A stretch of DNA of 64,000 nucleotides from Escherichia coli (lineage in GTDB: Bacteria; Pseudomonadota; Gammaproteobacteria; Enterobacterales; Enterobacteriaceae): the NCBI RefSeq assembly GCF_013315695.1, contig NZ_CP054353.1; one strand, given 5' to 3'. Under the pieces are notes generated by a model that saw only the letters and a list, made by a program, of their open reading frames with translations, had not been told where the DNA came from and made no database searches. Each line of letters starts with the position of its first letter. Within the stretch, counting starts at the first letter, position 1. This document shows positions 2,049 through 60,460 of the stretch, one piece after another. Both the position numbers and the translations under genes were made by a program.

Positions 2049-3287
2049 TTATTCCGCGTTTTCGTGAATATGTTTGCTGCTGGCGGGTAGTAAACCGTCG
2101 GCACGGAACATCGCTTTAATTCCACGAATCGCCTGGCGAATACGATCGCGGTTTTCAATCAGTGCAAAGCGAACATGGGTGTCGCCGTAGTCGCCAAAGC
2201 CAATCCCTGGAGAGACACAGACCTTCGCTTCGTTAAGCAATTTCTTGGCAAATTCCAGTGAACCCATGGCCGCATATGGTTCCGGGATTTTCGCCCAGAC
2301 ATACATCGAAGCCTTCGGCATTTCGACCATCCAGCCCGCTTCATGCAGCCCTTTTACCAGTACATCACGGCGGCGTTTGTACTGTTCGGCAATATCGCGC
2401 ACGCACTGTTGATCGCCCTCCAGTGCCGCAATCGCCGCCACCTGCAACGGCGTAAAGGTGCCGTAATCGTGATAGCTTTTAATACGTGCCAACGCGCTGA
2501 CCAGCGTTTTGTTACCGACCATAAAGCCGATACGCCAGCCCGCCATGTTGTAACTTTTCGACAGCGTAAAGAACTCGACCGCCACATCGCGTGCACCTGG
2601 CACCTGCATGATTGACGGCGCTTTCCAGCCATCGTAGACGATATCGGCATAGGCCAGGTCATGGACCACCAGCACATCGTAGCGTTTCGCCAGCGCCACT
2701 ACTTTTTCGAAGAACTCCAGCTCCACGCATTGCGCAGTTGGGTTCGAGGGGAAGCCGAGGATCATCATCTTCGGTTTCGGATAACTTTCGCGAATGGCAC
2801 GTTCCAGTTCGTTGAAGAAATCGACACCTTCCACCAGCGGCACTGAGCGTACCTGCGCCCCGGCAATCACCGCGCCGTAAATATGAATGGGGTAACTTGG
2901 ATTCGGCACCAGCACTGTGTCACCGTGATCCAGCGTCGCCAGCATCAGATGCGCCAGGCCCTCTTTCGAACCAATAGTGACGATGGCTTCTGATTCCGGG
3001 TCGATTTCAACGTCGTAGCGATCCTGATACCAGCGGGAAATGGCGCGACGTAGCCGCGGAATGCCGCGTGAAGTGGAGTAACCATGCGTGTCCGGGCGCT
3101 GGGCCACCGTACATAATTTTTCGACGATATGCGGCGGAGTCGCACCGTCCGGGTTACCCATACTGAAATCGATAATATCTTCGCCGCGCCGACGCGCAGC
3201 CATTTTCAGTTCAGCGGTAATGTTAAAAACGTAGGGCGGGAGACGATCAATACGCGTAAAGCGACGTTCAGGGCGAGTGTCAGCCAT
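2049..3287 (-). CDS. alaC: PLP-dependent aminotransferase (glutamate-pyruvate aminotransferase AlaC), 412 aa
   Basis: 412-aa ORF with class I aminotransferase features, including the [15 protein letters not shown]-lysine region. Confidence 0.9.
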
Positions 3288-3663: not shown

Positions 3664-5361
3664 GTGCACGAAATATTCAACATGCTGCTGGCGGTCTTCG
3701 ATCGGGCAGCGTTAATGCTTATCTGCCTGTTTTTTCTCATCCGTATCCGCCTGTTTCGCGAACTGTTGCACAAGTCGGCACACTCACCGAAAGAGCTGCT
3801 CGCCGTTACCGCCATTTTCTCGCTGTTCGCCCTGTTCAGCACCTGGTCCGGCGTTCCCGTAGAAGGCTCGCTGGTGAACGTACGTATTATCGCGGTGATG
3901 TCAGGCGGAATTCTGTTTGGCCCGTGGGTGGGCATCATTACCGGCGTGATTGCGGGTATTCACCGTTATTTAATTGACATCGGCGGCGTGACGGCGATCC
4001 CCTGCTTTATCACCAGCATTCTGGCGGGTTGTATATCGGGCTGGATCAACCTGAAAATCCCTAAAGCGCAGCGTTGGCGCGTCGGTATTCTCGGCGGCAT
4101 GTTGTGTGAAACGTTGACCATGATTCTGGTGATTGTCTGGGCACCAACTACCGCGTTGGGGATCGATATCGTCTCTAAAATCGGCATTCCAATGATCCTC
4201 GGTAGCGTCTGTATCGGCTTTATTGTGCTTCTGGTGCAAAGCGTTGAGGGCGAAAAAGAGGCCAGCGCCGCGCGGCAGGCCAAGCTGGCGCTGGATATCG
4301 CCAACAAAACGCTGCCGCTGTTTCGCCATGTCAATAGCGAGTCATTACGCAAAGTCTGCGAAATTATCCGCGATGACATTCACGCCGATGCGGTGGCGAT
4401 TACTAATACCGATCATGTGCTGGCCTACGTTGGCGTGGGTGAACATAACTATCAGAATGGCGATGACTTCATTAGCCCGACTACCCGTCAGGCGATGAAT
4501 TATGGAAAAATCATCATTAAAAACAATGATGAAGCCCACCGCACACCAGAGATTCATTCCATGCTGGTGATCCCATTGTGGGAGAAAGGCGTTGTGACCG
4601 GAACGCTGAAAATTTACTACTGCCACGCGCATCAGATCACCTCGTCATTACAGGAAATGGCGGTCGGTCTGTCACAAATCATCTCCACGCAACTGGAGGT
4701 TTCGCGCGCTGAGCAGCTGCGTGAAATGGCAAATAAGGCAGAGCTTCGCGCCCTGCAAAGCAAAATTAATCCCCATTTCCTGTTTAACGCTTTGAACGCT
4801 ATTTCATCGTCAATCCGCCTGAATCCGGATACTGCTCGCCAGCTGATCTTTAATTTGTCGCGCTATCTGCTCTATAACATTGAATTAAAAGATGATGAGC
4901 AAATCGATATCAAAAAAGAGCTGTATCAAATTAAAGACTATATTGCCATTGAGCAGGCCCGCTTTGGCGACAAGCTGACAGTTATCTATGATATTGATGA
5001 AGAGGTGAATTGCTGCATTCCCAGCCTGCTGATCCAGCCGTTGGTGGAAAACGCCATTGTCCACGGTATCCAGCCTTGCAAAGGTAAAGGCGTTGTCACC
5101 ATCAGCGTTGCAGAGTGCGGTAATCGGGTACGTATTGCGGTGCGAGATACCGGGCACGGCATCGATCCAAAGGTGATTGAGCGGGTCGAAGCGAATGAAA
5201 TGCCGGGCAATAAAATTGGCCTGCTGAATGTCCATCATCGTGTGAAGTTATTGTATGGCGAGGGGCTGCATATCCGCCGCCTGGAACCAGGAACGGAAAT
5301 TGCGTTTTACATTCCTAACCAACGCACCCCAGTCGCCTCACAGGCTACGTTATTGCTTTGA
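3664..5361 (+). CDS. ypdA: LytS-type sensor histidine kinase, 565 aa (YpdA; pyruvate-responsive two-component sensor in K-12)
   Basis: GTG start at 3664; N-terminal multi-TM region, central GAF-like region, C-terminal kinase with [10 protein letters not shown] motif and ATPase domain. Confidence 0.9.
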
Positions 5362-23894: not shown

Positions 23895-24287
23895 ATGAAA
23901 AGATTACGCAATAAAATGACCACCGAAGAACTGGCTGAATGCCTCGGTGTGGCTAAACAAACTGTTAACCGTTGGATCAGAGAAAAAGGCTGGAAAACGG
24001 AAAAATTTCCTGGCGTGAAAGGCGGTCGTGCCAGACTTATTCTGGTCGATACGCAAGTTTGCGATTTTATTCAGAACACGCCAGCCTTCCATAACACGCC
24101 GATGCTTCTGGAAGCCGAAGAACCCCTTGCCGAATACGCACCGGGGATTCGCACTCCTGCTTATCGGCAAATCATCAGCGCAATAGACAACATGACTCAC
24201 AGTGAGCAGGAAAAAGTTGCGCAATTTTTGTCACGCGAAGGAATTCGTAATTTCCTTGCTCGTCTCGACATAGATGAATCAGCTTGA
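23895..24287 (+). CDS. yfeD: small HTH DNA-binding protein, paralog of YfeC (YfeD), 130 aa
   Basis: Shares the motif EELA..LG..KQT.N.W.R.KGW.T...PGV.GG.ARL with yfeC; start is 1 bp after the yfeC stop. Confidence 0.8.
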   Translation: MKRLRNKMTTEELAECLGVAKQTVNRWIREKGWKTEKFPGVKGGRARLILVDTQVCDFIQNTPAFHNTPMLLEAEEPLAEYAPGIRTPAYRQIISAIDNMTHSEQEKVAQFLSREGIRNFLARLDIDESA

Positions 24288-24326
24288 CATCCTCCACGCC
24301 CTGAATGACGAGGATCCCTGCTACGT

Positions 24327-25535
24327 TCAGGCTGTCACCTGAATCATTTCGGTGGGTTCCTGCTTCAACGAGCGGCCTGACTGCACCATCTCTCCACAGG
24401 CAAGAACGGCGTGCCCCGCCGCTAAAATGTTACGAGCGCCATTTACATCAGCGTTCGCTGTATATCCACATGCCTGGCATCTGAATTTACTTTGTGACAG
24501 GCGATTTTCTTTCGCTGTATGACCACAGCACGCGCAACGCTGGCTTGTGTACGCTGGCGGAACAGCAAGCACCTGACCGCCACGCCAGAGCTGCTTGTAC
24601 TCAAGCTGGCGGCGCATTTCATACCAGCCCTGATCCAGTATCGAACGGTTTAAACCTGATTTTGCCCGGACATTGCGCCCCGGCTGGCTGACCGTACCCG
24701 CTGCTGACTTTGACATGTTGCTGACCTTCAAATCCTCAATGACTATCATTGCGTGGTTTTTGCTGACGGTCGTTGTGACTTTGTGAAGGTAGTCCCTGCG
24801 GATATTTGCGATACGGGAATGCAGTCGCTGTATTTTGCGTTTCTGCTTCTGCCAGTTATTGCTGAATTCGACCTTGCGGCTTAACTGTCGCTGAAGTCTC
24901 GCCAGCGTCTTCTGGTTTTTCTGAAAACTGTTTACAGGCTCAAAGACTGTGCCATCTGACAGCGTGGCGAGTTTAGCCACGCCAGCATCCAGCCCGACCA
25001 TTGATGCTGAAGGGTGAACCGGAGTGGATACTTCACTTTCTGTCTGAATACTGATGTACCACTTACCGCAGGACTGGCTGACAGTGACATTTTTCACAAC
25101 ACCCGTGACCTGACGGCTGTTCCGGTAGCGCATCCAGCCAAGTTTCGGCAGAAAAATACGGCTGTTTTCCTGATCGAGCTTAACGCCCTGCGGGTAGCGG
25201 AATGCATCATTCTGTCCCCGCTTTTTGAATCGGGGAAAAGCAGCCCGCTTCTGGAAGAAGTTTTTGTAAGCCCGCTCAAGGTCTTTCAGTGACTGTTGCA
25301 ATGGCTGTGAGGGCGAATCTTTAAGCCATTGCATTTCAGTGGCGTTTTTCCACTCAACCAGCCAGGAAGCCATTTTCCCGTAAGGGATGTATTTATTACC
25401 GGCCTCATGATTCTCATTCTGAAGCGCCAGAGCACGATTGAAAACGAAACGACATGCGCCTGCGAAGCGCCTCATTTCACACTCCTGTTGACCACCTGGT
25501 CTTAACTGGAATTTAAATGCCTGTAATCGTTTCAC
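24327..25535 (-). CDS. tnpB: TnpB (OrfB) RNA-guided endonuclease of IS200/IS605 family, 402 aa
   Basis: Conserved N-terminus ([10 protein letters not shown]...[13 protein letters not shown]), RuvC-I VGLDAGV, Ruv[12 protein letters not shown], zinc finger CACCGH...CQACGY, Ruv[17 protein letters not shown] start at 25535 has no SD, internal ATG at 25475 has strong AGGAG and would give 382 aa. Confidence 0.85.
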
Positions 25536-25542
25536 AGGTCAA

Positions 25543-26030
25543 ATGATACTTTGGTCTGTGAAAAAAGAAACCGATATCCGGCGTGGAAGGCATTGTGTTT
25601 TCCTGATGCATGTTCACCTGGTCTTTGTCCCAAATACCGACGCCAGATTTTTGACCATGACGCGACAGAAAAACTACGCACTTACTATTCAAATGTATGT
25701 GCTGATTTTGAAGCTGAACTGGTTGAAATGGATGGCGAACCAGATCACGTCCATTTGTTAATTAACTATCCTCCCAAACTGGCGATATCCAGTCTGGTAA
25801 ACAGCCTCAAAGGCGTATCGGGTAGGTGACTGCGACGAGATCGACCAGATATTGCAGTCAGGTATTACTACAAAGGCGTTTTGTGGAGTCCTGGCTATTT
25901 TGCCAGTAGCTGCGGAGGTGCGCCAATATCCGTCATCCGCCAATACATTGAACAACAGCAAACACCTGGTCAGGTGGAAAACCGCGCCTTATATCCCCGC
26001 CCTGAAGGACGGGGTTTTACGGCGCACCGG
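25543..26030 (+). pseudogene. tnpA: tnpA (IS200/IS605 Y1 HUH transposase), disrupted
   Basis: TnpA-like sequence is split: ...HCVFLMHVHLVFVP in one frame, KYRRQIF...DHVHLLINYPPK...SLKGVSGR in another (about 1-nt loss near 25628-25631), then an in-frame TGA at 25827-25829, then ...WSPGYFASSCGGAPISVIRQYIEQQ. Confidence 0.65.
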
Positions 26031-33498: not shown

Positions 33499-34497
33499 AT
33501 GAAACTTTTTCGTATCCTCGATCCTTTCACCTTAACCCTGATCACGGTGGTGTTGCTGGCCTCTTTCTTTCCGGCCAGAGGCGATTTCGTCCCCTTCTTT
33601 GAAAATCTGACCACTGCAGCTATTGCCCTGCTGTTCTTTATGCACGGCGCGAAGTTGTCGCGTGAGGCGATTATTGCTGGCGGTGGTCATTGGCGACTGC
33701 ATTTGTGGGTAATGTGCAGCACCTTCGTGCTGTTCCCAATTTTGGGCGTGCTGTTTGCCTGGTGGAAACCGGTAAATGTCGACCCGATGCTCTATTCCGG
33801 TTTTCTCTACTTGTGCATTCTTCCTGCTACCGTGCAGTCTGCAATCGCCTTCACGTCAATGGCGGGCGGTAACGTCGCGGCGGCGGTTTGTTCTGCGTCA
33901 GCATCCAGCCTGCTGGGGATTTTCCTTTCACCATTGCTGGTTGGTCTGGTGATGAATGTTCACGGTGCAGGGGGCAGCCTTGAGCAGGTCGGTAAAATTA
34001 TGCTGCAACTGCTGCTGCCGTTTGTGTTGGGGCATCTTTCCCGGCCGTGGATTGGTGACTGGGTGTCGCGCAATAAAAAATGGATTGCGAAAACTGACCA
34101 GACGTCCATTCTGTTGGTGGTTTATACGGCATTCAGCGAAGCCGTCGTTAACGGTATCTGGCACAAAGTTGGCTGGGGATCATTGCTGTTTATCGTGGTG
34201 GTCAGTTGCGTTCTTCTGGCTATCGTGATTGTAGTTAACGTCTTTATGGCACGCCGACTGGGCTTCAATAAGGCAGATGAAATTACTATCGTCTTTTGTG
34301 GTTCGAAAAAGAGTCTGGCAAATGGCATCCCGATGGCAAACATTCTGTTCCCCACATCGGTGATCGGTATGATGGTGCTGCCCCTGATGATTTTTCATCA
34401 GATCCAATTGATGGTCTGTGCGGTGCTGGCGCGTCGATACAAACGCCAGACCGAACAGTTACAGGCGCAGCAGGAAAGCAGCGCCGATAAAGCTTAA
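33499..34497 (+). CDS. yfeH: putative Na+-dependent transporter (bile acid:sodium symporter superfamily), 332 aa
   Basis: Polytopic membrane protein; divergent from yfeR. Confidence 0.8.
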   Translation: MKLFRILDPFTLTLITVVLLASFFPARGDFVPFFENLTTAAIALLFFMHGAKLSREAIIAGGGHWRLHLWVMCSTFVLFPILGVLFAWWKPVNVDPMLYSGFLYLCILPATVQSAIAFTSMAGGNVAAAVCSASASSLLGIFLSPLLVGLVMNVHGAGGSLEQVGKIMLQLLLPFVLGHLSRPWIGDWVSRNKKWIAKTDQTSILLVVYTAFSEAVVNGIWHKVGWGSLLFIVVVSCVLLAIVIVVNVFMARRLGFNKADEITIVFCGSKKSLANGIPMANILFPTSVIGMMVLPLMIFHQIQLMVCAVLARRYKRQTEQLQAQQESSADKA

Positions 34498-39996: not shown

Positions 39997-40328
39997 TGGC
40001 CTGCTTCAAACTTTCGCCCCTCCTGGCATTGATTCAGCCTGTCGGAACTGGTATTTAACCAGACTAATTATTTTGATGCGCGAAATTAATCGTTACAGGA
40101 AAAGCCAAAGCTGAATCGATTTTATGATTTGGTTCAATTCTTCCTTTAGCGGCATAATGTTTAATGACGTACGAAACGTCAGCGGTCAACACCCGCCAGC
40201 AATGGACTGTATTGCGCTCTTCGTGCGTCGCGTCTGTTAAAAACTGGCGCTAACAATACAGGCTAAAGTCGAACCGCCAGGCTAGACTTTAGTTCCACAA
40301 CACTAAACCTATAAGTTGGGGAAATACA

Positions 40329-40586
40329 ATGTTCCAGCAAGAAGTTACCATTACCGCTCCGAACGGTCTGCACACCCGCCCTGCTGCCCAGTTTGTAAAA
40401 GAAGCTAAGGGCTTCACTTCTGAAATTACTGTGACTTCCAACGGCAAAAGCGCCAGCGCGAAAAGCCTGTTTAAACTGCAGACTCTGGGCCTGACTCAAG
40501 GTACCGTTGTGACTATCTCCGCAGAAGGCGAAGACGAGCAGAAAGCGGTTGAACATCTGGTTAAACTGATGGCGGAACTCGAGTAA
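40329..40586 (+). CDS. ptsH: phosphocarrier protein HPr, 85 aa
   Basis: [23 protein letters not shown] with active-site His15. Confidence 0.97.
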
Positions 40587-40630
40587 TTTCCCGGGTTCTT
40601 TTAAAAATCAGTCACAAGTAAGGTAGGGTT

Positions 40631-42358
40631 ATGATTTCAGGCATTTTAGCATCCCCGGGTATCGCTTTCGGTAAAGCTCTGCTTCTGAAAGAAGACGAAA
40701 TTGTCATTGACCGGAAAAAAATTTCTGCCGACCAGGTTGATCAGGAAGTTGAACGTTTTCTGAGCGGTCGTGCCAAGGCATCAGCCCAGCTGGAAACGAT
40801 CAAAACGAAAGCTGGTGAAACGTTCGGTGAAGAAAAAGAAGCCATCTTTGAAGGGCATATTATGCTGCTCGAAGATGAGGAGCTGGAGCAGGAAATCATA
40901 GCCCTGATTAAAGATAAGCACATGACAGCTGACGCAGCTGCTCATGAAGTTATCGAAGGTCAGGCTTCTGCCTTGGAAGAGCTGGATGATGAATACCTGA
41001 AAGAACGTGCGGCTGACGTACGTGATATCGGTAAGCGCCTGCTGCGCAACATCCTGGGCCTGAAGATTATCGACCTGAGCGCCATTCAGGATGAAGTCAT
41101 TCTGGTTGCCGCTGACCTGACGCCGTCCGAAACCGCACAGCTGAACCTGAAGAAGGTGCTGGGTTTCATCACCGACGCGGGTGGCCGTACTTCCCACACC
41201 TCTATCATGGCGCGTTCTCTGGAACTGCCTGCTATCGTGGGTACCGGTAGCGTCACCTCTCAGGTGAAAAATGACGACTATCTGATTCTGGATGCCGTAA
41301 ATAATCAGGTTTACGTCAATCCAACCAACGAAGTTATTGATAAAATGCGCGCTGTTCAGGAGCAAGTGGCTTCTGAAAAAGCAGAGCTTGCTAAACTGAA
41401 AGATCTGCCAGCTATTACGCTGGACGGTCACCAGGTAGAAGTGTGCGCTAACATTGGTACGGTTCGTGACGTTGAAGGTGCAGAGCGTAACGGCGCTGAA
41501 GGCGTTGGTCTGTATCGTACTGAGTTCCTGTTCATGGACCGCGACGCGCTGCCCACTGAAGAAGAACAGTTTGCTGCTTACAAAGCAGTGGCTGAAGCGT
41601 GTGGCTCGCAGGCGGTTATCGTTCGTACCATGGACATCGGCGGCGACAAAGAGCTGCCATACATGAACTTCCCGAAAGAAGAGAACCCGTTCCTCGGCTG
41701 GCGCGCTATCCGTATCGCGATGGATCGTAAAGAGATCCTGCGCGATCAGCTCCGCGCTATCCTGCGTGCCTCGGCTTTCGGTAAATTGCGCATTATGTTC
41801 CCGATGATCATCTCTGTTGAAGAAGTGCGTGCACTGCGCAAAGAGATCGAAATCTACAAACAGGAACTGCGCGACGAAGGTAAAGCGTTTGACGAGTCAA
41901 TTGAAATCGGCGTAATGGTGGAAACACCGGCTGCCGCAACAATTGCACGTCATTTAGCCAAAGAAGTTGATTTCTTTAGTATCGGCACCAATGATTTAAC
42001 GCAGTACACTCTGGCAGTTGACCGTGGTAATGATATGATTTCACACCTTTACCAGCCAATGTCACCGTCCGTGCTGAACTTGATCAAGCAAGTTATTGAT
42101 GCTTCTCATGCTGAAGGCAAATGGACTGGCATGTGTGGTGAGCTTGCTGGCGATGAACGTGCTACACTTCTGTTGCTGGGGATGGGTCTGGACGAATTCT
42201 CTATGAGCGCCATTTCTATCCCGCGCATTAAGAAGATTATCCGTAACACGAACTTCGAAGATGCGAAGGTGTTAGCAGAGCAGGCTCTTGCTCAACCGAC
42301 AACGGACGAGTTAATGACGCTGGTTAACAAGTTCATTGAAGAAAAAACAATCTGCTAA
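40631..42358 (+). CDS. ptsI: PTS enzyme I, 575 aa
   Basis: Full-length EI with phospho-His region ([21 protein letters not shown]) and PEP-utilising domain. Confidence 0.97.
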
Positions 42359-42398
42359 TCCACGAGATGCGGCCCAATTTACTGCTTAGGAGAAGATC

Positions 42399-42908
42399 AT
42401 GGGTTTGTTCGATAAACTGAAATCTCTGGTTTCCGACGACAAGAAGGATACCGGAACTATTGAGATCATTGCTCCGCTCTCTGGCGAGATCGTCAATATC
42501 GAAGACGTGCCGGATGTCGTTTTTGCGGAAAAAATCGTTGGTGATGGCATTGCTATCAAACCAACGGGTAACAAAATGGTCGCGCCTGTAGACGGCACCA
42601 TTGGTAAAATCTTTGAAACCAACCACGCGTTCTCTATCGAATCTGATAGCGGCGTTGAATTGTTCGTCCACTTCGGTATCGACACCGTTGAACTGAAAGG
42701 CGAAGGCTTCAAGCGTATTGCTGAAGAAGGTCAGCGCGTGAAAGTTGGCGATACCGTGATTGAATTCGATCTGCCGCTGCTGGAAGAGAAAGCCAAGTCT
42801 ACCCTGACTCCGGTTGTTATCTCCAACATGGACGAAATCAAAGAACTGATCAAACTGTCCGGTAGCGTAACCGTGGGTGAAACCCCGGTTATCCGCATCA
42901 AGAAGTAA
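42399..42908 (+). CDS. crr: glucose-specific PTS EIIA (Crr), 169 aa
   Basis: EIIA-Glc sequence [39 protein letters not shown]. Confidence 0.97.
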
Positions 42909-42922
42909 TTCTTGCCGCAGTG

Positions 42923-42950
42923 AAAAATGGCGCCCATCGGCGCCATTTTT
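42923..42950. terminator. bidirectional terminator shared by crr and pdxK
   Basis: AAAAATGGCGCC-CATC-GGCGCCATTTTT perfect 12-bp stem with A-run and T-run arms, abutting the pdxK stop. Confidence 0.75.
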
Positions 42951-43802
42951 TTATGCTTCAGCCAGAGGCGGCAAAATCAATTCATCGCTCTCATGCTGCT
43001 GGGTATAGCGCATCACTTCCAGTACGCGCAACCCCGCGCGGTGCACCGCATCGTTTAACGCCTTCCCTTTCAGCAAACCACTGATAAGCTGAGCACAAAA
43101 CAGGTCGCCAGTCCCTTTCAGGTCGGTTTTTACCCGTGAATGGGAAATGACATTCACGCTGTCGGCACTCACCACCACCACCTGCATCTCCTGATTTTCT
43201 TCATTGCCGGAGGCGCTGGTAATCACCACCCATTTTAATGTGTCTGAAAGCAGACTTTTTGCGGCAGCAATGGCACTGTCGAGATCGCGGCAATCTTTAC
43301 CGGTCAGGATTTCCAGCTCAAAGATATTGGGGGTAATTCCCTGTGCCAGCGGCAGTAAATATTGTCGATACGCCTCGGGAAGGTCAGGTTTGACATAAAT
43401 TCCGCTATCAATATCGCCAATCACCGGATCGACCATGATCAATAGGTCAGGATGGTCTTTGCGTAGCGCAGTCAGCCACTCGGCAAGGATTTTGATTTGC
43501 GATGCCGTTCCCATATAGCCCGTGGTTACAGCACGAAGTTGGCGCAGCGCATCACGCTCCTGAAGCGCACGCAAATAACCGCTAAACCATTCATCCGGAA
43601 TCGCACCACCGTAGAAAGTGTCATAATGCGGCGTATTGCTCAGCAATACCGTCGGCACGGCAAAGACATTCAGGCCGTTCTGTTTGATAGCAGGCACCGC
43701 AATGCTGTTGCCTACGCTGCCGTACACTACCTGCGACTGCACGGCAACGATATCCGCCTGCAGTGCCCTGCTCTTATCGTTAAACAACAACAAACTACTC
43801 AT
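42951..43802 (-). CDS. pdxK: pyridoxal/pyridoxine/pyridoxamine kinase, 283 aa
   Basis: PfkB/ribokinase-like fold with PdxK-type sequence. Confidence 0.9.
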
Positions 43803-43815
43803 TTAATTTTTTCTC

Positions 43816-43881
<66 letters not shown>

Positions 43882-43882
43882 C

Positions 43883-44275
<393 letters not shown>

Positions 44276-44277
44276 TC

Positions 44278-45189
44278 TTAAATCCCCGCCCCCTGGCTAA
44301 AATGCTCTTCCCCAAACACCCCGGTAGAAAGGTAGCGATCGCCACGATCGCAGATGATCGCCACCACCACCGCGCCAGGGTTAGCTTTTGCCACCCGCAG
44401 TGCTCCGGCAACCGCGCCGCCGGAGCTGACGCCACAGAATATTCCTTCCCGCGCCGCCAGTTCGCGCATAGTGTTTTCCGCATCGCGCTGATGAATATCC
44501 AGCACCTCATCCACCAGAGAAGCGTTGAAAATCCCCGGCAGATATTCCGCAGGCCAGCGGCGAATGCCTGGAATACTGCTGCCTTCTTCCGGCTGCAGGC
44601 CAACAATCGTCACCGGTTTGGATTGTTCGCGCATAAAGCGTGACACGCCGGTGATAGTGCCGGTTGTTCCCATGCTGGAGACAAAATGGGTAATGCGCCC
44701 GCCGGTTTGCTGCCAGATTTCCGGTCCGGTAGTGGTGTAATGGGCGTAAGGGTTATCGGGATTATTGAACTGATCGAGCAGCTTTCCTTCACCACGATTG
44801 GCCATCTCCAGCGCCAGATCGCGCGCACCTTCCATGCCCTGCTCTTTGGTGACCAGAATCAGTTCCGCACCGTAGGCACGCATTGCCGCACGGCGTTCCT
44901 GGCTCATGTTGTCGGGCATCAGCAATTTCATGCGATAGCCTTTAAGCGCGGCAATCATTGCCAGCGCAATGCCGGTGTTACCACTGGTGGCTTCGATCAG
45001 CACGTCACCCGGTTTAATTTCCCCGCGCTTTTCCGCCTCGACGATCATCGAAAGTGCCGCACGATCTTTTACCGAACCTGCCGGGTTATTGCCTTCCAGT
45101 TTCAACCAGACTTCACTGCCGTTATTCGGCCCCATTCGCTGCAACTTCACCAGAGGCGTATTGCCAATTGTTTGTTCTAATGTACTCAC
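44278..45189 (-). CDS. cysM: cysteine synthase B (O-acetylserine sulfhydrylase B), 303 aa
   Basis: ORF 44278-45267; chose GTG at 45189 giving (M)STLEQTIGNTPLVKL; PLP-lysine motif SVKDRAA. Confidence 0.9.
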   Translation of the reverse strand: MSTLEQTIGNTPLVKLQRMGPNNGSEVWLKLEGNNPAGSVKDRAALSMIVEAEKRGEIKPGDVLIEATSGNTGIALAMIAALKGYRMKLLMPDNMSQERRAAMRAYGAELILVTKEQGMEGARDLALEMANRGEGKLLDQFNNPDNPYAHYTTTGPEIWQQTGGRITHFVSSMGTTGTITGVSRFMREQSKPVTIVGLQPEEGSSIPGIRRWPAEYLPGIFNASLVDEVLDIHQRDAENTMRELAAREGIFCGVSSGGAVAGALRVAKANPGAVVVAIICDRGDRYLSTGVFGEEHFSQGAGI

Positions 45190-45212
45190 GATCTCTGTCC
45201 ATACGTGGTGTT

Positions 45213-45248
45213 GCCTGATGCGACGCTTGCGCGTCTTATCAGGCCTAC
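45213..45248. repeat. REP element between cysA and cysM
   Basis: GCCTGATGCGACGCTTGCGCGTCTTATCAGGCCTAC, near-identical to the REP at 16345-16380. Confidence 0.8.
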
Positions 45249-45322
45249 AGGTTACAAACCTTGCCATTAAAAAGCCCGGATCGCGGGAAGCGCCTCCGGG
45301 CGTTTAACATTCACTCAACCTA

Positions 45323-46420
45323 TCAGGCGCTTTGTGCGAGAGCAAGTTCCTCATCGCGGGTTTCAATACGCTCGTCGCCGTTATACAGCCGCGCATGTTG
45401 CAGACCAACGAATAAACGCTCGCCACGCTGCGGGGCATCGTCGCCATGCATCACAACCGTCAGCGCTTCGTTGTACCACCCCAGCGGCTGCACGACTAAT
45501 TGGGTGTAGTGGCCTTTCGGGCTGGCTTCCAGTACCTGTACCGGCAGCGGCGAATCGAGGCTGGTACGGCGGCTGATATCCACTTCCCACGGACGCAGGA
45601 AGAGATCCACTGGCCCCTGATACGCAGGTGTATAGCCCAGCGGCCAGCGATGTGCGCCAACATGGAACTGCCCGCCGCGAATGGTTCCCTGCAGGCGGTT
45701 CACTTCGCCCATAAATTCGAGTACAAAACGGGTCGCTGGTTCGCGCCATACCTGGTCCGGTGCATCAGCCTGCTCGATATTGCCCTGGCTCATCACCACC
45801 ACACGATCGGCTACTTCGGTCGCTTCTTCCTGATCATGGGTCACAAACACGCTGGTGAATTTCAGCTCTTCATGTAACTGACGCAGCCAGCGACGCAACT
45901 CTTTACGCACCTGCGCATCCAGCGCGCCAAACGGTTCATCAAGCAGCAGAATTTGCGGTTCTACAGCCAGCGCGCGCGCCAGTGCCACACGCTGTTTCTG
46001 GCCGCCGGAAAGCTGTGCTGGATAACGATCCGCCAGATGCGCAAGCTGCACCATCTCCAGCAAGTTTGTCACTTTCGCTTTGATAGCTGCGGCATTCGGG
46101 CGCTCGCGACGCGGCAGCACCGTCAGGCCGAAAGCGATATTGTCGAACACCGTCATATGGCGGAACAGCGCGTAATGCTGAAACACGAAACCGACTTTAC
46201 GATCGCGCGCATGCAGGCGGCTGACGTCGGTGCCGTGGAAGCGAATATGCCCGCTGGTTTGATGCTCCAGCCCGGCGATAATTCGCAGCAGCGTGGTTTT
46301 CCCGGAACCGGACGGCCCCAGCAACGCGACCATCTGACCAGAAGGAATATCCAGTGAGATATCGTTCAGCACCTGGGTGCGACCAAAAGACTTCTTAATA
46401 TTGGCAATCTCAATGCTCAT
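45323..46420 (-). CDS. cysA: sulfate/thiosulfate ABC transporter ATPase, 365 aa
   Basis: Walker [13 protein letters not shown] signature LSGGQKQR, Walker B LLLDEP. Confidence 0.95.
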
Positions 46421-47285
46421 GATGTTCCTCCTGCTGCGCGCGTTTTTCCTGATTCTCCAGACGCCACTGCAACATACTCTTTAAAAACAGGGTGATAATC
46501 GCCATCAGCGTCAACAACGCGGCAGCGGTAAAGGAGCCGACGGTGTTGTAGTCCTGCTCCAGCAATTCAATCTGTAACGGCAGCGAAAGTGTTTCGCCGC
46601 GAATCGAGCCGGAAACCACCGACACCGCACCAAACTCGCCAATCGCGCGGGCGTTGGTCAGCACCACGCCATAAAGCAGCGCCCAGCGGATGTTCGGCAG
46701 CGTGACGCGACGGAACATCTGCCAGCCAGATGCGCCCAGCAAAATCGCTGCTTCGTCTTCCTGGCTGCCCTGGCTTAACATTACCGGCACCAGCTCGCGC
46801 ACCACAAACGGACAGGTCACGAAGATGGTGACCAGCACCATTCCCGGCCAGGAGAACATAATTTGCAGGTTATGCTCATCCAGCCAGCCACCGAGCGGGC
46901 CGTTAGAGCCGTAAAACAGCAGATACACCAGACCGGCAACCACCGGCGACACGGCAAACGGAATGTCCAGCAGCGTCAGCAGCAACTGGCGTCCGGGGAA
47001 GTTAAAGCGCGTCACCAGCCAGGCCAGCAGAATGCCGAACACCAGGTTCACCGGCACGGCAATCAGCGCAATCATCACCGTCAGCCAGATGGCGTGCAGC
47101 ATGTCCGGATCGGCCAGATTCTGTAAAACTGGCATCAGCCCTTTGCTGAATGCCTGCACGAAGATGTAAATCATCGGCACCAGCAGGATGAACGCCGAAA
47201 CCAGCATCCCGATGCCAATCAGAAACCATTTGCCCCAGTTAATCGGGCGCGCGTCATAACGCTTCAATTGGGTAACTTCCGCCAT
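46410..47285 (-). CDS. cysW: sulfate/thiosulfate ABC transporter permease, 291 aa
   Basis: Membrane permease; 11-nt overlap with cysA start. Confidence 0.9.
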
Positions 47286-48118
47286 TAATGACCTACCACA
47301 CGCCGACCAAAGCGACTTTGCAGAGTGTTAATTGAGAACAGCAGCAGCAGGGATGCCGCGAGGATCACCGAAGCAATCGCGCTCGCCGCCGGGTAATCAA
47401 ACTCCTGTAAGCGAACAAAAATCATCAGCGACGTCACTTCCGTCTTCCAGGCAATGTTCCCGGCGATGAAAATCACCGCGCCAAATTCACCAAGACTACG
47501 GGTAAACGACAGCGCCACGCCCGCCACCAGCGCCGGAGAAAGCTCCGGCAGCACCACTTTGCAGAAACTCTGCCAGCGCGTTGCGCCGAGCGTTTCTGCC
47601 GCTTCTTCATATTCCGGGCCTAACTCTTCCAGCACCGGCTGCACGGTACGCACCACAAACGGAATACTGGTAAAAGCCATCGCCACCGCAATCCCCAGCC
47701 AGGTATAGGTAACTTTGATATCAAACTTCGCCAGCCATTCACCGTAAAAACCGTTCACGGAAAAGAGCGAGGCCAGCGTTAAACCGGCCACTGCCGTTGG
47801 CAGCGCAAAGGGTAAATCCATCAGCGCATCGAGCAGCGTGCGGCCCGGAAAGCGATAGCGGGTTAAGATCCACGCCATCAGCAAACCGAAAACGCCGTTA
47901 AAAATCGACGCGACAAACGCTGACAGCAGCGTCACTTTGTAGGCCGCGACCACCTGCGGGTTGGTGATCACCTCCCAGTACTGCGCCCAGCTCATCTGAG
48001 CCAGCTGCATCACCAGCGCGGAGAGCGGCAGCAGCAAAATCAGGCACACAAACAGCAGACTGGTGCCGAGGCTTAAGGTAAAGCCCGGCAGCACGCGTCT
48101 TGATGAAACTGCAAACAT
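47285..48118 (-). CDS. cysU: sulfate/thiosulfate ABC transporter permease, 277 aa
   Basis: Membrane permease; start/stop overlaps with cysP and cysW. Confidence 0.9.
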   Translation of the reverse strand: MFAVSSRRVLPGFTLSLGTSLLFVCLILLLPLSALVMQLAQMSWAQYWEVITNPQVVAAYKVTLLSAFVASIFNGVFGLLMAWILTRYRFPGRTLLDALMDLPFALPTAVAGLTLASLFSVNGFYGEWLAKFDIKVTYTWLGIAVAMAFTSIPFVVRTVQPVLEELGPEYEEAAETLGATRWQSFCKVVLPELSPALVAGVALSFTRSLGEFGAVIFIAGNIAWKTEVTSLMIFVRLQEFDYPAASAIASVILAASLLLLFSINTLQSRFGRRVVGH

Positions 48119-58499: not shown

Positions 58500-59402
<903 letters not shown>

Positions 59403-59407
59403 CTCCC

Positions 59408-60460
59408 TCACCCCCACTCCCGCATCCGCTGATGCAGCGTCAGTGACGGCTTCTCGGCAAACAGTTGCTGATAATCCGTAGCAAATTGCCCAAGATGCCA
59501 GAATCCCCACTGCATGGCGGCGTCTTTTACCGTCATACTTTGCGACCACGGGCTTATCAGTTCGCGGCGCACGGCGTTCAGGCGAATGCGTTTCAGCCAC
59601 GCGTTTGGGCCAATGCCTAAAATAGCGTGAAAAGCGTTTTGTAGCGTGCGGCGGCTGACATGTAGTTGATTACACAAGTCCAGCACCGTCACCGGTTCGG
59701 ACATGTTTTCCAGCACATATTCACGGGCGCGGGAAAGCAATCGACGGTAACTCTGATGACTGATGCTTTCCGCCGTCACCATTGGCTGCGCTTCTTCCAG
59801 CATCGCCCCCATCGCCATTAGCAAGTTATCCCCCAGCACTTTTCGCACTGCAGGCTGATGGAGATTTTCCGGGTTCTCGCAAAACGTCGCCAGCGCCTGT
59901 TGGACAAAGCCCCACAGAGCGGCTTTATGCTGCTCTTTCACTTCCAGCGCCGACTGGCTACGCAGCATATGTAATACCCGATCCGGATTATGCAAAAAGT
60001 TAGCCTGACGAGTGATGACATCTTCAGAAAGCACTACGCCCAGGATCGTGTAATCGTCCGGCGTACTTAATTCAAACTCGGTTCCACCCGGGCGCGTCGC
60101 AATTTCTGCGCTTCCCAGACATTGCGAACCGATAAATCCCTGCTCACCGCGCGTCGCCGGAATGCCAAACCAGAACGAGTTCGGCCAGACCAGGCACGAC
60201 TGACGCAGCGCCAGACCGGTGTATTCACGAAAAACCTGAATATCATCGAGTAGAATTTCCGTAAATTCACCATGAAACTTGCCCGGATGCAGCTGATCGT
60301 AAATCTGCTGCCAGGCGGTAATCGTCAAAGCATGTTCATAGACATCCGTTGTCTGTCGTTGATGAACATTATCCACTTCGACCTTCGGCGTGAGCTTCAG
60401 GTTTTCGGGTAAGGGTTCATGATAAAGATGGTGCAAATTGGCTGTACGGGTCTTTTTCAT
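59408..60460 (-). CDS. eutR: AraC-family activator of the ethanolamine operon, 350 aa
   Basis: C-terminal AraC HTH; last gene of the minus-strand eut operon; stop 5 bp from the hemF stop. Confidence 0.9.

Follow-up and report, generated by a model that had tools for sequence, protein, structure and literature searches.

The yfeK/cysM junction of an Escherichia coli genome, a probable empty site of the yfeS-REP cassette found in K-12

Introduction

In Escherichia coli K-12, 704 convergent gene pairs have been counted, about 30% of which carry REP sequences, and 306 bidirectional terminators are on record, according to a preprint (10.64898/2026.03.23.713779). Part of the termination at convergent pairs comes from head-on collisions of RNA polymerases, the place of which is set by a nascent stem-loop (bioRxiv 10.1101/2022.10.23.513370). 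The core backbone of the Enterobacteriaceae also receives small insertions of accessory genes, known as indel “islets”. The locus described here touches on both subjects. In K-12 BW2952 the gene order is pdxK(-), yfeK(+), yfeS(+), cysM(-), and the literature contains incidental mentions of yfeS only, among them its listing with the K-12 hypothetical proteins that lack a function (PMC12356324) and the inclusion of a yfeS mutant in a screen of the Keio deletion collection (PMC11502571). In the stretch of DNA analyzed here (64,000 nt of the E. coli contig NZ_CP054353.1, hereafter the window), yfeK and cysM abut directly. We compare this junction with the K-12 locus, with complete E. coli genomes and with related species, and consider which of the two arrangements is the older one and how the facing transcripts may end.

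The yfeK/cysM junction in the window

The coding sequence of yfeK occupies 43907-44275 on the plus strand (122 aa), as given by the list of open reading frames, Pfam and the RefSeq annotation of strain MS 21-1, and ends with a TAA stop codon at 44273-44275. Its product has a signal-peptide-like N-terminus and belongs to the DUF5329/YfeK family (Pfam PF17263, 108.7 bits against a cut-off of 27, E=1.8e-31, residues 24-115); it is 95% identical to K-12 YfeK. On the minus strand, cysM (cysteine synthase B, 303 aa as annotated) occupies 44278-45189 according to tblastn and annotation, with its stop codon at 44278-44280, and its product is 98.7% identical to K-12 CysM over 303 aa (tblastn). It is the final gene of the cysP-cysT(cysU)-cysW-cysA-cysM cluster; upstream of it, also on the minus strand, come cysA, cysW, cysT and cysP. 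The pdxK gene, identified from the open reading frame list and annotation, lies at 42951-43802 on the same strand as cysM. The longest reading frame of cysM (44278-45267) has 26 more codons ahead of the annotated GTG start (45190-45267; 329 versus 303 aa); these reach into the cysA-cysM spacer and are probably not translated.

The initial annotation had described the two stop codons as convergent and 2 bp apart, with no gene, terminator or hairpin between them. Direct reading of 44262-44300 (...GTG CCT GCG CAA TAA tc TTA AAT CCC CGC...) bears out the arrangement of the stops, which are separated by the dinucleotide TC at 44276-44277, a gap in which no open reading frame fits. The RefSeq annotation of MS 21-1, whose 1.2-kb locus is 100% identical to that of the window, places the ends of the yfeK and cysM coding sequences identically, 2 bp apart. 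A tblastn search of window positions 40001-48000 with K-12 YfeS gave no match, and no REP sequence is present at the yfeK/cysM junction of the window. Pairwise and three-way alignments, together with comparison of junctions, delimit an unoccupied insertion site, CAATAATC, at 44270-44277.

Statistically, such close spacing does not stand out. The annotation of MS 21-1 shows 11 convergent pairs in the 50 kb around the locus, and three of them are separated by 5 bp or less; tight or overlapping convergent ends are common in the genome, and thus nothing singles out the yfeK/cysM pair. Of the other two close pairs, the convergent ends of eutR and hemF lie 5 bp apart (59402-59408, annotation of the identical strain), and the coding sequences of ypeB and yfeH overlap by 4 bp at their convergent ends (34494-34497, RefSeq annotation of MS 21-1). 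An element of the IS200/IS605 family, consisting of a frameshifted tnpA pseudogene and an intact “transposase” gene, lies between gltX and yfeD in MS 21-1 (window 24206-25846). Over the segment 43700-44900 the window shows an unusual divergence from most E. coli, and only 55 genomes reach an identity of at least 99%. Identity at the locus is approximately 97.6% to ST131, 96% to O157:H7 and 95.3% to K-12, and the local haplotype may be recombinant or belong to a rare lineage.

The occupied allele of K-12

The statement in the initial annotation that K-12 has a WGR-domain gene of roughly 0.7 kb between yfeK and cysM proved accurate. The stop codons of the two genes are 955 bp apart in K-12, and the interval consists of yfeS (735 bp, 244 aa) and two REP hairpins; the segment lengthens the span of the K-12 record by 959 bp. 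The juxtaposition seen in the window is not that of K-12: BW2952, MG1655 and others all contain yfeS and the REP pair, and alignment to K-12 defines the junction as 2 bp in the window against 955 bp, with yfeS absent from the window. The two REP hairpins make up the last ~190 bp of the K-12 segment, and each E. coli genome contains dozens of sequences that match them. The C-terminal tail of YfeK also differs, reading ...KTVPAQ* in the window and ...KTVPAEGN* in K-12.

K-12 YfeS matches the Pfam WGR domain (PF05406, 65.1 bits, E=6.1e-18) over residues 9-71 only, and the C-terminal ~170 aa have no Pfam match; the PDB relative 2ra8 likewise matches the N-terminus only. A role of yfeS as a defense or mobile-element gene was considered and set aside: YfeS matched none of the PADLOC defense models, no phage copies were found beyond weak partial matches in Listeria phage records, and plasmid matches were few. 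A single plasmid copy was found in E. coli, an unannotated paralogue 70% identical to YfeS on the 50-kb, non-mobilizable plasmid pZ0117EC0005-3 (NZ_CP098226.1; L029 4001-4702). Full-length homologues of ~40% identity occur in records filed as Fusobacterium plasmids, and the distribution of the family is therefore patchy and crosses phyla.

In 300-nt sliding windows, the G+C content of the yfeS coding region is 0.36-0.42; that of pdxK/yfeK on the left is ~0.44-0.53 and that of cysM on the right 0.51-0.60. One copy of the 8-bp repeat ATTAATCC lies at each end of the cassette, at 2078-2085 and 3030-3037 of the K-12 locus, 952 bp apart. Taken alone, a repeat of this kind is at the level of chance, since twelve two-copy families of direct repeats (8-15 nt) are found in the same 1 kb, and the weight of ATTAATCC rests only on its position. 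In strain FCI29 the empty allele reads CAATAATCC|TTA, one base from the ATTAATCC repeat; as judged from the sequence, this allele fits an origin resembling a target duplication, with the yfeK stop codon of K-12 lying in the left copy of the repeat. The left junction of the K-12 cassette contains seven extra bases (GAAGGAA) that are not explained by simple target duplication. Examination of the K-12 cassette for the features of insertion sequences and transposons found yfeS as its sole open reading frame, no transposase, no terminal inverted repeats and only the 8-bp direct repeat.

Distribution of the two alleles and polarity of the difference

A 100-nt query spanning the junction was compared with complete E. 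coli genomes, and contiguous matches were counted. The empty, contiguous junction was found in 4,038 of 5,426 genomes, or about three quarters, and 1,381 of the 5,426 contain the yfeS segment; these two classes cover all but approximately seven genomes. O157:H7, ST131 and O111:H8 are examples of the empty class, and derivatives of K-12 and BL21 belong to the occupied class. The junction sequence is highly conserved among the empty genomes, and some carriers of yfeS have an IS1 or ISVsa5 insertion within the gene. The proposal that yfeS is dispensable accessory content therefore holds, given its presence in 1,381 of the 5,426 genomes, its interruption in some of them and the existence of a Keio mutant. 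The statement that the gene is missing needs to be divided: yfeS is accessory and is missing relative to K-12, but its absence does not appear to represent a loss, because the empty junction is the majority state and apparently the ancestral one, with the insertion on the side of K-12.

For the comparison with other species, species-representative genomes were scanned for yfeK, which yielded 22 loci; loci of Salmonella and E. fergusonii were not returned, as the peptide patterns probably missed them. The distance between the two stop codons is 1 in Enterobacteriaceae UBA5654, 2 in a divergent species representative named “E. coli” and in Pseudocitrobacter faecalis, 31-32 in Citrobacter amalonaticus and a Superficieibacter species, and 57 in Entomohabitans. 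In Escherichia sp. E1V33 it is -12, where yfeK, with the YfeK tail ...TTVPSNP*, and cysM overlap tail-to-tail by 12 nt (L003 1417-1428); the junction can thus be even tighter than that of the window. Nearly every base of the empty site of the window (…CTGCGCAATAATCTTAAATCC…) recurs in that of P. faecalis (…CTGCGCAATAAACTTAAATCC…). Among the surveyed outgroup loci, yfeS is absent except in an uncultured Pseudocitrobacter metagenome-assembled genome (MAG).

Other sequences are found between the two genes in some of these relatives. The stop-to-stop distance is 516 in Superficieibacter electus, which contains a DUF4440/SnoaL-like reading frame of 140 aa (L013 3473-3895) whose stop overlaps the stop codon of cysM (3′-ends at 3895 and 3892). 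In E. albertii the distance is 1,819 (NBRC 107761, L010 3331-5149, 1.8 kb), and the interval contains two minus-strand reading frames without a firm Pfam match. The longer encodes 280 aa and matches nothing in Pfam; the shorter encodes 175 aa, with a lipoprotein-like N-terminus, and has a sub-threshold match to DKNYY only. A G+C-rich hairpin lies directly 3′ of yfeK in E. albertii. The tail of YfeK varies freely among species; on the right, every insertion ends flush with the stop codon of cysM, which is what selection on cysM would require. We entertain, as a doubtful but conceivable extension, that the 3′-3′ junction of yfeK and cysM is a recurrent slot for small low-G+C cargo across the Enterobacteriaceae, that cassettes are exchanged there between genera via the conserved ends of cysM and yfeK, and that the hairpin at the empty site could also stop both transcripts in a collision-type manner.

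The insertion site carries a yfeS+REP cassette of ~0.95 kb in K-12, BL21 and the Pseudocitrobacter MAG, with identical boundaries and ~95-96% identity among the three. The YfeS protein of the MAG has 94% amino acid identity, and its cassette (L006 3408-4320) has the exact K-12 boundaries and REP hairpins of the E. coli type. The flanks of E. coli and Pseudocitrobacter are only ~85-90% identical, and homology ends upstream of yfeK. At the level of sequence, a cassette closer to that of K-12 than its flanks are suggests either transfer between genera or a chimeric MAG, and the ~5% divergence between the cassettes of K-12 and BL21 may reflect several imports or a polymorphism of long standing. 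A recombination tract that would mark the donor of the cassette was sought by sliding identity along the flanks of the window, K-12, the divergent Escherichia and two Pseudocitrobacter loci, which gave no clear breakpoint.

It could be argued instead that the ancestor of E. coli possessed yfeS, and that the lineage of the window and most other lineages have deleted it, for example by way of the ATTAATCC repeats. The direct repeats flanking the cassette could support such a deletion, the presence of yfeS at the same site in the Pseudocitrobacter MAG is readable as an old presence, and decay of the gene by IS insertion is seen in some strains. However, not one of the 5,426 complete E. coli genomes contains a clean product of recombination between the ATTAATCC repeats (…CTGCGGAAGGAAATTAATCCTTAA…); at 94.1%, the closest contiguous match is the standard empty allele aligned with a gap. 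Deletion through these repeats was rejected as the origin of the empty site for this reason. Moreover, the empty site of E. coli is nearly base-for-base that of P. faecalis and of the divergent Escherichia lineage, no empty site retains a remnant of REP or yfeS, the G+C content of the cassette is low, and the greater likeness of the cassette than of the flanks between genera points to transfer rather than vertical descent. We regard an ancestral yfeS with widespread loss as very unlikely.

The most economical reading of these sequences is that the tight junction is ancestral and that yfeS and the REP pair form an acquired cassette, which has been moved by homologous recombination across the conserved flanks. 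We are highly confident that the window contains the uninterrupted ancestral junction and that the K-12-type locus arose when a low-G+C yfeS+REP cassette of ~0.95 kb was inserted at the yfeK stop and later spread by recombination; what we infer about the ends of the two transcripts forms part of the same account. The cassette would have entered exactly at the yfeK stop of the tight junction, replacing the last codons of yfeK (PAQ* to PAEGN*), leaving ATTAATCC on both sides and ending flush with the stop codon of cysM. It would then have spread by recombination through the conserved flanks to a part of E. coli and to at least one Pseudocitrobacter. A cassette that was inserted and spread in this manner would be a dispensable accessory gene, and its absence from the window would be the default state.

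Ends of the convergent transcripts

The statement that no hairpin is present at the junction needs qualification, although the accompanying claim that there is no terminator stands. A perfect 9-bp inverted repeat, ATTGCGCAG-N16-CTGCGCAAT, lies at 44240-44273 in the 3′-end of yfeK, its last base being the first of the stop codon, and is a candidate stem-loop in both transcripts. The predicted energy of the hairpin is -13.0 kcal/mol in the plus-strand RNA and -15.8 kcal/mol in the minus-strand RNA. The hairpin is followed by AAUCUUAAAU on the plus strand and by UAACGCAUGU on the minus strand, neither of which is the U-tract of an intrinsic terminator, and a consensus scan of 43700-45400 found no promoter-like or terminator-like site. 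Of the features of a bidirectional terminator, a stem-loop is present at the junction and the A- and U-tracts are absent.

These properties bear on the possibility that the abutment is itself functional, with the stem-loop at 44240-44273 serving as a shared, collision-type bidirectional terminator that couples yfeK and cysM, and with the yfeS/REP insertion of K-12 rewiring this coupling. The hairpin is stable and lies within 5 nt of both stops, the junction is conserved among the empty E. coli genomes as described above, and a nascent stem-loop is needed to position head-on RNA polymerase collisions at convergent pairs (bioRxiv 10.1101/2022.10.23.513370). REPs between convergent genes are reported to correlate with higher expression (preprint 10.64898/2026.03.23.713779). 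The window also contains 33 perfect 9-bp inverted repeats, compared with ~6 in Markov-shuffled sequence, an excess of about fivefold, which is in keeping with a role for such structures; by these numbers alone, however, the hairpin is shown to be neither functional nor accidental. Against a function stand the missing tracts on either side and the negative terminator scan, as well as fold z-scores for the 121-nt region (-0.33 and +0.38) that are not significant. The stem is explained by coding, being formed by two Ala-Gln codon pairs around a palindromic GCGC. In addition, E1V33, E. albertii, Citrobacter, UBA5654 and K-12 lack its 3′ arm, the repeat being lost or truncated in the first three of these and in K-12. 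A T>C substitution in the stem of one lineage is not compensated on the other side, and no covariation was seen. Folding of both strands and comparison across loci, which revealed no U-tract, conservation or covariation, led us to reject the hairpin as a supported terminator; it is probably incidental, and a shared terminator that couples the two genes is, in our judgment, extremely unlikely.

How transcription ends at an ancestral junction of this type may be considered from base composition. Past the yfeK stop, the next 280 nt have a C/G ratio of 1.4-1.9; past the end of cysM the ratio is ~1.2. C-rich, G-poor RNA is the composition preferred by Rho. Read-through RNA from yfeK would be untranslated, antisense to cysM, C-rich and G-poor, and would thus most likely be stopped by Rho. 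Read-through from cysM would cross yfeK in antisense toward pdxK and, at a C/G ratio of ~1.2, appears less obviously prone to Rho. The suggestion that the head-on abutment could allow the two transcription units to interfere finds no specific support here. Head-on encounters of RNA polymerases would be possible when yfeK and cysM are both active, and polymerases arriving from either side might in principle pause at the hairpin at 44240-44273.

Comparison with described systems

The difference between the window and K-12 is an ordinary presence/absence polymorphism that is already visible in existing annotations. Its significance is small, and it touches no surprising biology or open question. 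It provides a clean case, resolved to the single base, of an accessory cassette with one gene together with its empty site, and the natural pair of alleles, abutting or separated by yfeS and the REP pair, could be used for studying convergent gene ends without a terminator. It also illustrates that K-12 should not be taken for the default E. coli: its allele here is a minority insertion, and “missing relative to K-12” is not equivalent to loss.

The K-12 yfeK-yfeS-cysM locus (b2419-b2421) is similar to that of the window in its flanking genes, their order and their orientation (ptsHI-crr, pdxK, yfeK, cysM, cysA and so on), with 95.3% nucleotide identity in the flanks. It is unlike the window in the distance between the stops (955 versus 2 bp) and in the tail of YfeK (...PAEGN versus ...PAQ). 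With respect to the REP/BIME sequences found between convergent genes, the yfeS-cysM spacer of K-12, with its two REP hairpins, is typical of the ~30% of convergent pairs that have such elements (preprint 10.64898/2026.03.23.713779), whereas the yfeK/cysM junction of the window has no REP. The junction in the window resembles the bidirectional terminators of convergent E. coli genes in having a stem-loop near both 3′-ends (Ju et al. 2019; Wang et al., bioRxiv 10.1101/2022.10.23.513370). By contrast with them, its candidate hairpin is part of the yfeK coding sequence, has neither an A- nor a U-tract beside it and shows no conservation. The likeness to the accessory indel “islets” is of another kind. 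The K-12 cassette differs from these in having no integrase, tRNA, transposase or terminal inverted repeats, a short flanking direct repeat being its sole signature. On the other hand, it shares with the islets a single low-G+C cargo gene placed between conserved core genes and a polymorphism for presence or absence, and, as in the islets, the slot holds different cargo in relatives, namely two reading frames in E. albertii and a DUF4440 reading frame in S. electus.
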